Shown here piece by piece: positions 806 to 5,681 of a stretch of 64,000 bases of DNA. This stretch comes from Escherichia phage vB_EcoP_PE007. The notes beneath the pieces are model-generated. The model searched no databases. It was not told the origin of the DNA and was given only the letters and a program-made list of their open reading frames with translations. The position numbers were made by a program, and so were the translations under genes. The stretch lies in sequence record OQ938542.1. The stretch is one strand, 5' to 3'. The stretch's first letter is position 1. Every line of letters begins with the position of its first letter.

Positions 806-1012
806 ATGCGTATTCAAACTTCCTTATTTGCAAACAAGAGTAACAATGGTGGATTGTTAGGTAAGATGAATGCTCAATGGAATCTATGGTTCTCAGAGAT
901 TACTAACGTAATAGAAAGACAGCACTATGTTGCTTGTCACACATTCCCTGTTAAACCTACCAAGAAACAAATCCGTAAATTACGTAGAGAGTTTCGCAAA
1001 GAAGCAATCTAA
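806..1012 (+). CDS. small early protein, basic C-terminus; paralog of 1664-1849
   Basis: 68-aa ORF with RBS; shares C-terminal KPT[KR]KQIRKL motif with ORF 1664-1849. Confidence 0.5.
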   Translation: MRIQTSLFANKSNNGGLLGKMNAQWNLWFSEITNVIERQHYVACHTFPVKPTKKQIRKLRREFRKEAI

Positions 1013-1016
1013 AACC

Positions 1017-1033
1017 AAGACGCTCCGCGTCTT
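1017..1033 (+). promoter_or_regulatory. candidate virion-RNAP early promoter hairpin (stem aagacgc/gcgtctt, loop tcc)
   Basis: 7-bp stem, 3-nt loop, same aaaacca upstream motif as hairpin at 757. Confidence 0.5.
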
Positions 1034-1139
1034 ATGGATGATGTAAATGCATCCACTAATCATTGAACTTTTATCCCTTTGTTTGGGTGTTCTCACCGAC
1101 GAGTTCACCCGTAAATCACATAAATCTGGAGAGTACAAA

Positions 1140-1520
1140 ATGTCTATTCAAAAATTCACTTTCGGTCAATCTAACGCTGCTGCTACCACTGCTAAAGCTG
1201 ATAAACCAAAAGCTCAGTTCTGGCTGAACATTGGTTATGTAGCTAATGAAGGCTCTGATGATGAGAAATTCATCTCACTGCCTACTGGTATTCCACTGGA
1301 TACTCAGGAACCGCTGCCTACTAATAGCAGCAATGCTGACTTCCGTGCTATGCGTTGTGCACAGAATGACTTGCTGGAACAGTTAATCGCTTATGCTCAG
1401 AACCTGGAACCAGGTGAAGAAGGTATCATTAACCTGCAAGTTCAACTTCGTCGTGTGAAAGCAGAGGCTGCTGACATCCCAGCAGACGAGAATAAATATG
1501 CTCGTAAACTGACTTTCTAA
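1140..1520 (+). CDS. hypothetical early protein
   Basis: ATG at 1140 with GGAGA RBS (in frame with longer ORF from 1047); 126 aa. Confidence 0.5.
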
Positions 1521-1529
1521 TCAACCAAT

Positions 1530-1558
1530 AGACTCCCTTCGGGGAGTCTTTTATTTTT
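1530..1558 (+). terminator. intrinsic terminator
   Basis: agactccc-ttcg-gggagtct stem-loop followed by tttatttttt. Confidence 0.7.
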
Positions 1559-1663
1559 AACTAGACGATAAGCTATTTCTACTTTTTGAGTATCTTTAGA
1601 CGAAGGGTACTGAAACAGTAACCAGATAAATATAGATTTATATTAGATGAAGGAGTAACCATT

Positions 1664-1849
1664 ATGCGTACATTATGTAGCCGTTATAACTCGCAGAAGA
1701 TGATTAATATGTTACAACCTTGGGGCAGTAAGATGACACTGAACGCACGTTGGCAGGTATCTGTAAAAGATGAAAATGGTCAGTGTTATGACCACTTCTT
1801 TGTAGCTAAACCTACTCGTAAACAAATCCGTAAACTTCATAAGGCATAA
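1664..1849 (+). CDS. small early protein; paralog of 806-1012
   Basis: 61-aa ORF, AGGAG RBS; conserved C-terminal KPTRKQIRKL. Confidence 0.5.
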   Translation: MRTLCSRYNSQKMINMLQPWGSKMTLNARWQVSVKDENGQCYDHFFVAKPTRKQIRKLHKA

Positions 1850-2979: not shown

Positions 2980-3201
2980 ATGTTGTTCAGCACTAATTAT
3001 GGAATCTGCCCAATCTGTAAGAAAGGAAGAGGAGTTGCTAATCATAAGAAGTGTAGTCGTATCCTACAGAAACAACGGAACCAGAAAGAATGGGATAGGA
3101 TATTGGAAAACCAACACAAAGATGAGTTCAAGAAGACGGCTGTTAAGGCATCTACTCAGCTCATTCGTCGTACTAACTTCATAGAAGGTTATCAGAGATG
3201 A
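2980..3201 (+). CDS. small basic Cys-containing protein (possible zinc ribbon)
   Basis: 73 aa; CPICKK...KKCSR motif; RBS present. Confidence 0.45.
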   Translation: MLFSTNYGICPICKKGRGVANHKKCSRILQKQRNQKEWDRILENQHKDEFKKTAVKASTQLIRRTNFIEGYQR

Positions 3202-3554
3202 AACTAATAGTGGCTGGTGGAAGAGACTTCGTAAATACCCAAGTAATGATTACAGTATTAATGGATTTAGTGGAGAAGGGTAAGATTGACCCTAATCCAG
3301 AATTAGTATGTGGTATGGCTCGTGGAGCAGATATATTAGCTTTCCGACTATGGAAATCTGCAAATATGCAGATACATGTATTCCCTGCTGAATGGGATAC
3401 CTATGGTAAATCTGCTGGATTCCGAAGGAATAAAGAAATGGGTGAGTTTGCAGATGCTGCTGTATGTTTCTGGGATGGTAAATCCAAAGGAACCAAGCAC
3501 ATGATTGATATCATGAATAGACTTAATAAACCTGTATATGTTGTGAGGTACTAA
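3198..3554 (+). CDS. SLOG-superfamily protein (DUF2493-like)
   Basis: 118 aa; GGRDF...GMARGADILAFRLW...AGFRRN...FWDGKSKGT pattern recalled for DUF2493/DprA-LOG-like Rossmann fold. Confidence 0.5.
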   Translation: MKLIVAGGRDFVNTQVMITVLMDLVEKGKIDPNPELVCGMARGADILAFRLWKSANMQIHVFPAEWDTYGKSAGFRRNKEMGEFADAAVCFWDGKSKGTKHMIDIMNRLNKPVYVVRY

Positions 3555-3809
3555 ATGATTATTACATATCCTACGGGTAAAACTGTGGAATATATGAAGC
3601 ATACAATTCAAGTGCCTCATTGGGTTAAGTATATAGCATTACTACCTCGCCAATATAAGAGTGCTAATACCTCACTAATAGGATTCTCTAAGAAGCCTAA
3701 GCTAACAGAAAACAATATCTGGGTATCCTCTGGAAGACAAGAAGAGATTGGTTTTTGTGATTTGAGTATTGTCGATAATAACATCTATGGGACATTGAGA
3801 AAGGTATGA
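3555..3809 (+). CDS. hypothetical protein
   Basis: 84-aa ORF. Confidence 0.45.
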   Translation: MIITYPTGKTVEYMKHTIQVPHWVKYIALLPRQYKSANTSLIGFSKKPKLTENNIWVSSGRQEEIGFCDLSIVDNNIYGTLRKV

Positions 3810-5666: not shown

Positions 5667-5681
5667 AGCTGCTCCGCAGCT
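5667..5681 (+). promoter_or_regulatory. candidate virion-RNAP early promoter hairpin (stem agctgc/gcagct, loop tcc)
   Basis: 6-bp stem, 3-nt tcc loop, 13 nt upstream of next ORF. Confidence 0.45.

Follow-up and report, generated by a model that had tools for sequence, protein, structure and literature searches.

Two divergent TifA-family proteins encoded among the early genes of an N4-like Escherichia phage

Close to the genome's left end in Escherichia phage vB_EcoP_PE007 (sequence record OQ938542.1), two very short open reading frames (ORFs), here called ORF A and ORF B, encode basic proteins with almost the same C-terminal motif, KPT(K/R)KQIRKL. This locus raises the question as to what these two proteins are, and whether they act on the same target. 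The original prediction, made from the sequence of the 64,000-nucleotide (nt) stretch analyzed here (the window), described them as tandem, duplicated host-takeover genes with a basic tail that might bind nucleic acid or a host protein. Judging from profile comparisons, ORF A and ORF B are two divergent, distantly related members of the TifA family (T4 gp61.4/TifA). The relevant features are as follows.

806–1012, + strand: ORF A, first-ATG ORF of 68 amino acids (aa); TifA family (DUF7279, phrog_2375)
1664–1849, + strand: ORF B, first-ATG ORF of 61 aa; TifA family (DUF7279), Schitoviridae-type subfamily phrog_7840, loop and helix both short
953–982, + strand: KPTKKQIRKL codons of ORF A (motif scan, alignments)
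1808–1837, + strand: KPTRKQIRKL codons of ORF B (motif scan, alignments)

Both ORFs exist where they had been placed and have ribosome-binding sites (GGAG for ORF A and GAAGGAG for ORF B, each 8 nt 5' of the ATG). Both proteins start with MR, and theirs are the sole two KPT(K/R)KQIRKL motifs in the six frames. The motif codons of ORF B share 80% nt identity with positions 952–986 over 35 nt. Neither the motif scan nor a hidden Markov model (HMM) of the family detected a third or degenerate copy in the whole window; the HMM finds exactly two members (8.9e-26 and 5.3e-19), followed by the next match at 0.07.

The similarity between the two proteins is beyond chance. BLASTP aligns them with 15/41 identities (E 3e-6), and the Smith–Waterman score of 63 compares to 22.4 ± 4.4 for shuffled sequences (z 9.3), with none of 3000 shuffles reaching 63. 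The N-terminal parts alone are not significantly similar (z 0.9); the pairwise signal comes almost wholly from the C-terminal motif, and the pairwise evidence alone is thin. The longer register H.F.V.KPT, proposed as a common feature, holds only approximately (HTFPVKPT in A, HFFVAKPT in B). What settles the homology is comparison with profiles. Against Pfam DUF7279 (PF23945; curated cut-off 24.5 bits) ORF A scores 71.5 bits (E 5.2e-20, residues 20–67) and ORF B 38.7 bits (E 9.5e-10, residues 24–60). The conserved Trp strand, with W25 in ORF A and W30 in ORF B, lies within both matches, and each ORF also cross-matches the other's PHROG. The shortness of the ORFs and a pairwise similarity limited to about 40 residues could suggest that the resemblance arose by chance or that the ORFs are not genes. 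We give this explanation next to no weight: E-values in Pfam and PHROG lie between 1e-9 and 5e-32, the family comprises 106 representative clusters, and many phages conserve and annotate the two ORFs, which have good ribosome-binding sites and confident AlphaFold2 (AF2) models. Chance similarity is refuted by the profile statistics.

T4 TifA itself matches DUF7279 with 72.7 bits (2.3e-20) and RB69 TifA with 63 bits (2.4e-17), which identifies DUF7279 as the TifA family; the homologue from the N4-like phage CB4 also matches (1.6e-15). The best PHROG match of ORF A is phrog_2375 (E 3.3e-23), which it has in common with T4 TifA (2.4e-38), RB69 TifA (2.3e-25) and the JS98-type homologue of phage Bp7 (6.9e-35). 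ORF B matches phrog_7840 (E 5e-32) and reaches phrog_2375 with only 1.3e-3, and is therefore not a member of the latter. In profile–profile comparison by hhalign, ORF A aligns without gaps to the T-even TifA profile (96.9%, E 1.3e-10, residues 18–66 of A on 20–68 of T4 TifA), and a B-type profile aligns to the same profile with a six-residue loop deletion (81.7%, E 1.1e-5).

The original prediction had named homologues in related phages as a check, and both ORFs do have them. By tblastn, ORF A also reaches unrelated phages of enterobacteria, with homologues in Mooglevirus (53% identity), the Chaseviridae phage ST32 (49%), Dhakavirus (40–42%), a jumbo phage and Cbunavirus. The connection to TifA was reached by way of phage Bp7, whose homologue, located between dmd and sp, carries the annotation 'similar to T4 gp61.4', and by way of the literature on gp61.4; T4 gp61.4 contains FAVRPTKRQIRQCKRYFRK. 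A literature search under the name 'DUF7279' found nothing. NCBIfam holds no model for the family (ORF A and T4 TifA gave no match, and ORF B only a meaningless one to VanXY at 0.028). A word-indexed protein search with ORF A alone returned 11 proteins, and wider reach needed the family alignment. More than 100 homologous clusters were identified, and an exhaustive profile search of 1.84 billion proteins retrieved only 106 representative clusters, all of 46–161 aa. DUF7279/TifA is a small, fast-diverging phage family.

TifA, or ToxN inhibitory factor A, is T4 gp61.4 (Srikant et al. 2022, PMC9391042; Guegler et al. 2024, PMC10853763). TifA co-precipitates with ToxN (PMC9391042). The substitutions P53A/T54A and K55A/R56A/R59A in TifA abolish RNA co-purification, ToxN rescue and ToxN co-immunoprecipitation, and the Pro-Thr cap and basic residues are kept family-wide (PMC10853763). 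The counterparts of T4 P53, T54, K55, R56 and R59 are P51, T52, K53, K54 and R57 in ORF A and P50, T51, R52, K53 and R56 in ORF B. By this alignment, KPT(K/R)KQIRKL corresponds exactly to the Pro-Thr-capped, functional basic helix of TifA. Within the pattern PT..QIR, neither P nor Q varies in our two family alignments (19 and 54 sequences), and T and R are each invariant in one of them and almost invariant in the other. Since the motif is conserved and the isoelectric points are high (10.7 for A and 10.3 for B), we infer that both proteins bind RNA.

The suggestion that the basic tail engages nucleic acid or a host protein is, by analogy, apt on both counts: the Pro-Thr-capped basic helix of T4 and RB69 TifA binds RNA, and these proteins also bind the endoribonuclease ToxN (PMC10853763). 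Host takeover is a less fitting label, as the known role of the family is counter-defence against a toxin–antitoxin (TA) system. Nevertheless, ORF A and ORF B could be general RNA- or ribosome-binding takeover factors that coat, for example, 16S rRNA or mRNA, thereby modulating translation or the stability of RNA early in infection, and have no dedicated toxin partner. TifA alone co-purifies with heterogeneous RNA, which it binds without sequence specificity (dissociation constant 0.36–2.3 μM), and 16S rRNA is enriched in ToxN–TifA complexes (PMC10853763). ORF A and ORF B are, in addition, very basic and lie among early genes. This explanation is difficult to reconcile with the dependence of the T4 TifA phenotype on ToxN and with single ToxN substitutions (K111N/R, Y115H, L118S) that escape TifA (PMC10853763). 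ORF A is also dispensable, being absent from phages nithesis, G7C and Mimir124, and sporadic presence together with a diversifying N-terminus better suits an accessory counter-defence gene. We therefore regard a generic takeover function as improbable.

AF2 models built with the 54-sequence family alignment are confident for ORF A (pLDDT 89.2; strands 2–10, 13–16, 19–21, 24–32 and 42–47; helix 53–67) and for ORF B (pLDDT 87.6; strands 2–8, 30–35 and 41–46; helices 11–20 and 52–60). Both models reproduce the published TifA fold, a β-sheet followed by a C-terminal helix. Foldseek neighbours of the ORF A model (TM 0.63–0.79) are predicted structures from phages EcS1, VR25 and Possum; those from EcS1 and VR25 are tied to the TifA family by phage and length only, and the length of the Possum neighbour (79 aa) agrees with a family-HMM match in that phage. 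ORF A and ORF B also resemble T4 and RB69 TifA in size class (61–85 aa) and in the K/R-K/R-Q-I-R residues that follow the Pro-Thr cap, and ORF A shares with them the spacing of 26 residues from Trp to Pro. They differ in that the identity of ORF A to T4 and RB69 TifA in the family alignment is only 33% and 26%, respectively, and does not extend beyond the protein's second half.

Further differences concern the part of the protein that sets toxin specificity in TifA. In TifA, the interface of sheet and loop with ToxN is the site of ToxN escape mutations and of TifA residue 41; this ToxN-specificity position (F41 in T4, H41 in RB69) lies in a roughly 20-residue loop between sheet and final strand, and the loop is reported as not conserved in the wider family (PMC10853763). 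In ORF A this loop has the same length as in T4 TifA and an unrelated sequence (SEITNVIERQHYV in A, DIPAEESPPFGRV in T4). In ORF B it is six residues shorter, an extra helix is predicted at residues 11–20, and the C-terminal helix ends at residue 60.

By analogy with T4 and RB69 TifA, for which ToxN trapping on bulk RNA is the proposed mechanism (PMC10853763), we consider it somewhat probable that ORF A and ORF B neutralize ToxN/AbiQ-type toxins by RNA tethering and do so with different specificities. Each protein would be produced within minutes of the start of infection. It would bind RNA non-specifically by way of the Pro-Thr-capped basic helix at its C-terminus, and its N-terminal β-sheet and loop would take hold of a host endoribonuclease that mediates abortive infection and belongs to the type III TA class (ToxN/AbiQ-like). 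The toxin would thus be held on abundant cellular RNA and phage transcripts would be spared. Plasmids of the relevant hosts encode ToxN/AbiQ toxins of several divergence classes (E. coli, 55 records; Salmonella, 12; Klebsiella, 8), among them classes only 36–42% identical to ToxN_Ec. Classes in this identity range, from E. coli and Enterobacter, are carried by plasmids such as CP057411 and OW970321. Because ORF A and ORF B differ where TifA specificity resides, namely in the sheet and the loop, the two proteins most likely cover different toxin variants instead of raising the dose. Whether they have a shared target, as had been suggested, is uncertain for the same reason.

The arrangement of the locus would fit production early in infection. 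The first 4 kb of the window, in which every gene is on the + strand, are 91–95% identical at the nt level to the left ends of N4-like Gamaleyavirus (Schitoviridae) coliphages such as SP5M, nithesis and ECBP1, and the window begins at the ATG of the N4 gp1 homologue. The following elements surround the two genes.

759–771, + strand: predicted early promoter hairpin for the virion RNA polymerase (vRNAP), GAAGC-TCC-GCTTC, identical to the N4 P2 hairpin (N4 559–571)
1019–1031, + strand: second predicted vRNAP promoter hairpin, GACGC-TCC-GCGTC, P2-like, before gp2
1140–1520, or 1047–1520 from a longer open reading, + strand: homologue of N4 gp2 (RNAPII cofactor; phrog_4099, E 2.6e-51)
1530–1549, + strand: intrinsic-terminator-like hairpin followed by a T-run, 3' of gp2 and 5' of ORF B; SP5M annotates a terminator
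5668–5680: third predicted vRNAP-type hairpin, P3-like, of the same architecture

The two genes thus flank an early gene, as had been noted; they are not strictly tandem, since the gp2 homologue and a terminator lie between them. A promoter for vRNAP had been proposed for one of them, and this holds as a sequence feature for ORF A: the hairpin at 759–771 has the architecture described for N4 vRNAP early promoters (PMC4496689) and is a promoter predicted from sequence. Its heptamer GCTCCGC is centred at 765 and places the predicted start at about G776, 30 nt 5' of the ORF A ATG. Each of the three hairpins is followed on its 3' side by a short T-rich stretch and GG (TATTGG, TTATGG and TTAAGG, in the order listed) that resembles those of N4 P1–P3 (TTATGG, TTTTGG). 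The hairpin at 1019–1031 is kept in SP5M, Mimir124, nithesis and G7C and is predicted to drive the gp2 homologue. ORF B lies between the P2-like (1019) and P3-like (5668) promoters, in the leftmost 3% or so of the genome.

Several observations weigh against the proposed neutralization of ToxN/AbiQ-type toxins. N4-type phages are not known to shut off host transcription in the manner of T4, and they may not trigger ToxIN. ORF B has neither a hairpin nor a sigma-70-like promoter of its own and follows the terminator at 1530–1549, so its early timing is suggested by its position only; a sigma-70 promoter scan gave fewer matches than shuffled sequence and none before ORF B, and therefore does not account for the transcription of ORF B. 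The loop of ORF A is unrelated in sequence to that of T4 TifA, ORF B lacks six loop residues, and the C-terminal helix of ORF B is shorter (about 9 residues versus at least 14). Furthermore, the one screen published so far included homologues from outside the T2/T4/T6/RB69 group, namely those of EcS1, vB_EcoM_005, VR7, JS98, PM2 and CB4, and these neutralized none of six ToxN homologues, nor TenpN (PMC10853763). Among T4-like phages, JS98 has the type nearest to ORF A; CB4 is an N4-like Pectobacterium phage. In view of these negatives, the targets of ORF A and ORF B may not be ToxN. The result for CB4 (vB_PatP_CB4) is the main caution: its protein is, like ORF A and ORF B, a family member from a Schitoviridae early region, although it belongs to phrog_12748, is 93 aa long and has a long N-terminus and a PTSKQVR motif. 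Finally, TifA binds single-stranded (ss) and double-stranded DNA in vitro with an affinity similar to that for RNA, which leaves room for other ligands (PMC10853763).

This last observation also bears on the possibility that ORF A and ORF B are DNA-binding regulators of the N4-type life cycle, acting for example on ssDNA or on hairpin promoters, and so does the fact that the genes flank gp2, an ssDNA-binding RNAPII cofactor. However, the family HMM detects no member in N4's early region (its first 7 kb), and the family occurs in T4-like, Ounavirinae, Chaseviridae and jumbo phages. These phages are not known to use the N4 vRNAP/hairpin-promoter system. Moreover, the nucleic acid that co-purifies with TifA in vivo is RNase-sensitive and DNase-resistant (PMC10853763). 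A role as DNA-binding regulators is therefore highly unlikely.

To return to the reading of ORF A and ORF B as toxin inhibitors of different specificity, the distribution of the two genes speaks to their separate origins. ORF B is a conserved Gamaleyavirus gene that is present in G7C (gp2.2), Mimir124, nithesis and SP5M. ORF A occurs only sporadically: SP5M and IME11 have it, and G7C, Mimir124 and nithesis lack it. A four-way alignment with the window delimits the variable block, which is missing in nithesis (94% nt identity overall) and Mimir124 and present in SP5M.

748–1007, + strand: cassette of promoter and ORF A; an indel relative to relatives, bounded by direct repeats of TTAAAAACCARGAMGCTCCGC, its limits being approximate owing to these repeats

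The cassette is flanked by two near-identical vRNAP promoter contexts, TTAAAAACCARGAMGCTCCGC, within 748–1031, and nithesis has a single copy (1045–1075) and no ORF A. Since near-identical promoter contexts bound the cassette and a single copy remains in nithesis, the promoter hairpins look like recombination sites for the gain and loss of early-gene cassettes. By these comparisons, ORF B is the resident Gamaleyavirus copy and ORF A a mobile promoter-plus-gene cassette in the gp1–gp2 interval, which is a hot spot of variable cargo. The idea of a simple duplication within the genome did not survive this analysis: a recent tandem duplication is rejected by the dissimilar N-terminal halves (z 0.9), the different PHROGs and the nature of ORF A as an indel cassette.

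The same comparison bears on the notion that both copies hit the same target and serve to raise the dose. T4 overcomes plasmid-borne toxIN by an approximately tenfold segmental amplification of dmd-tifA (PMC9391042), and both copies in the window keep the functional motif. Outside this motif, however, pairwise comparison detects no similarity between ORF A and ORF B, and they differ in PHROG, loop length and secondary structure. ORF A has nearer homologues in Mooglevirus, Chaseviridae and Dhakavirus (40–53%) than in ORF B, and was therefore acquired and not duplicated in place. We consider a pure dosage effect to be quite improbable.

A-type genes in the same slot, just 5' of gp2, also occur in phage ST4 (2501–2707) and in two metagenomic contigs, L017 (308–490) and L019 (1145–1318). 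From about position 941, at the F-P-x-K-P-T codons, through the gp2 start, ST4 and L017 share 97–100% nt identity with the window, and the promoter and leader of ST4 are 79–87% identical. Codons 1–45, in contrast, show about 40% identity between alleles and are effectively unalignable. The L019 allele is more diverged throughout and displays the same contrast. By these alignments, the N-terminal part, which contacts ToxN in TifA, is exchanged as a recombination module, and the RNA-binding helix and its flank stay constant. Among close orthologues of ORF A and ORF B, non-synonymous changes are about as frequent as synonymous ones, and none falls inside KPT(K/R)KQIRKL in the closest three, SP5M, Mimir124 and nithesis; the change A61V in ORF B of Mimir124 and nithesis lies just C-terminal to the motif. 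The mosaic alleles, the substitution pattern and the absence of the cassette from nithesis are consistent with an arms-race gene.

The number of TifA-family genes varies from none in the N4 early region through one in G7C and two in the window and in Jgk1 to three in the Gamaleyavirus KKP 3715. Phage As2 has two adjacent, overlapping copies. The three genes of KKP 3715, all on the minus strand (3368–3763, 3008–3286 and 2033–2356), comprise an A-type, a CB4-type (phrog_12748, a near relative of the CB4 protein that here stands beside A-type and B-type genes) and a B-type with a zinc-ribbon-like tail (2033–2356). About 40% of the B-type clusters are 97–107 aa long. In the long B-types a C-terminal extension, KCYECGKRI...LNYAHxxC (CxxC...HxxxC, zinc-ribbon-like), is fused to the TifA helix, as read in five sequences (the KKP 3715 gene and clusters P0102, P0109, P0110 and P0111); its sole Pfam match is a weak one to DUF2175 (0.02), and ORF B of the window does not have this tail. 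The B-type appears to be Schitoviridae-specific and short-looped, often with a C-terminal zinc-ribbon-like tail.

This diversity is also what would be expected if ORF A and ORF B were members of the same family with the same RNA-binding helix and, as partner, a different defence effector that targets RNA or other nucleic acids, such as another TA RNase (RnlA/LsoA-like, CptN or TenpN) or an Abi nuclease, so that the TifA fold would be a general tethering scaffold with exchangeable recognition modules. The distant homologues neutralized no tested ToxN or TenpN, the hypervariable N-terminal module is swapped by recombination around a constant helix, at least four PHROG subfamilies share the helix and Trp strand alone, and as many as three subtypes occur in one genome. 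On the other hand, no partner other than ToxN is reported for any family member, and TenpN is itself part of the negative panel. This alternative differs from ToxN/AbiQ neutralization in the identity of the target alone, and we judge it unlikely, though less so than the other alternatives.

Returning to the TifA analogy in full, the genetic setting of ORF A and ORF B has both familiar and unfamiliar elements. As in T4 and RB69, we are dealing with an accessory gene with an early promoter, predicted in the case of ORF A. Unlike T4 tifA, which belongs to the dmd-tifA-adfA 'anti-TA island', ORF A and ORF B lie in an N4-like early region beside gp2, with a predicted vRNAP promoter for ORF A, and the genome in question has two divergent copies. 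Dmd (gp61.5), the RnlA/LsoA inhibitor of T4 and the co-operonic neighbour of TifA, is likewise a small early phage protein that neutralizes a TA endoribonuclease, and has no sequence relationship to ORF A or ORF B. Dmd directly occupies the active site of the toxin and does not rely on tethering to RNA. In the vicinity of ORF A and ORF B, no dmd homologue was detected; neither the gp2 homologue nor the ORF at 413–751 gave a reliable Pfam match, and of ten further early ORFs compared with Pfam only one, at 3198–3554, matched. The pseudo-ToxI repeats of phage PhiTE also evade type III ToxIN and are, in contrast, an RNA mimic of the antitoxin. We found no toxI-like tandem RNA repeats and no relevant Rfam families in the window, which contains five short coding-region repeats and one tRNA gene (35561–35634, + strand; RF00005, 64.8 bits).

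Other observations concern the neighbouring genes. Homologues of the gp2 homologue are named Phage_N4_Gp2 (PF26984), and G7C annotates its copy as similar to N4 gp2; several relatives mislabel the protein 'RNA polymerase RNAP1 subunit A'. Its start is annotated differently: SP5M uses the internal ATG equivalent to window position 1140, which has a strong GGAGAG site, and the start equivalent to 1047 is used in nithesis and Mimir124 (474 nt, 157 codons) and in G7C (477 nt). From the start site predicted for the P2-like promoter, at about G1036, it is only 11 nt to the ATG at 1047. An ORF of 112 aa (413–751, phrog_24403), also present in nithesis and SP5M, separates gp1 from the cassette of ORF A; matched by position, G7C annotates two shorter ORFs here, gp1.1 and gp1.2. 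The intergenic stretch 1599–1621, GACGAAGGGTACTGAAACAGTAA, which is 3' of the gp2 terminator and 5' of ORF B, has a counterpart at 1150–1172 of N4, GACGAAGGGATACTAAAAAGTAA, and may be a regulatory or middle-promoter element. The ORF at 3198–3554 encodes an early protein of 118 aa with a YspA/SLOG-family domain (PF10686, E 1.7e-8), which relatives label 'DprA DNA processing protein' or 'GTP-binding domain'.

In the relatives, ORF A, ORF B and the direct homologues of both carry no label beyond 'hypothetical protein', and the Pfam name of the family is still DUF7279 even though T4 TifA belongs to it. The link to TifA gives both proteins a concrete, testable function, namely the inhibition of an RNase toxin. 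That the family serves counter-defence was known; new are the two to three subtypes in N4-like genomes, the promoter–gene cassette and the exchange of the recognition module by recombination. Phage therapy counts N4-like coliphages among its candidates, and their content of TifA types may help to foresee the plasmid-borne abortive-infection systems that they can overcome. With its sharp mosaic boundary, the A-type gene provides natural chimeras for mapping the toxin-specificity region of TifA, which published work addressed by AlphaFold models and a few point mutants alone. More broadly, and tentatively, Gamaleyaviruses and related N4-like phages could carry a modular arsenal of one to three TifA-type proteins with a constant RNA-tethering helix and swapped N-terminal modules. 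Crossovers would occur at the motif codons and at the vRNAP hairpins, and B-type and variable A-type proteins would neutralize nucleases beyond the ToxN variants tested so far. If this doubtful but possible extension were true, TifA would not be an inhibitor specific to ToxN but a general scaffold by which nucleases are tethered to bulk RNA.

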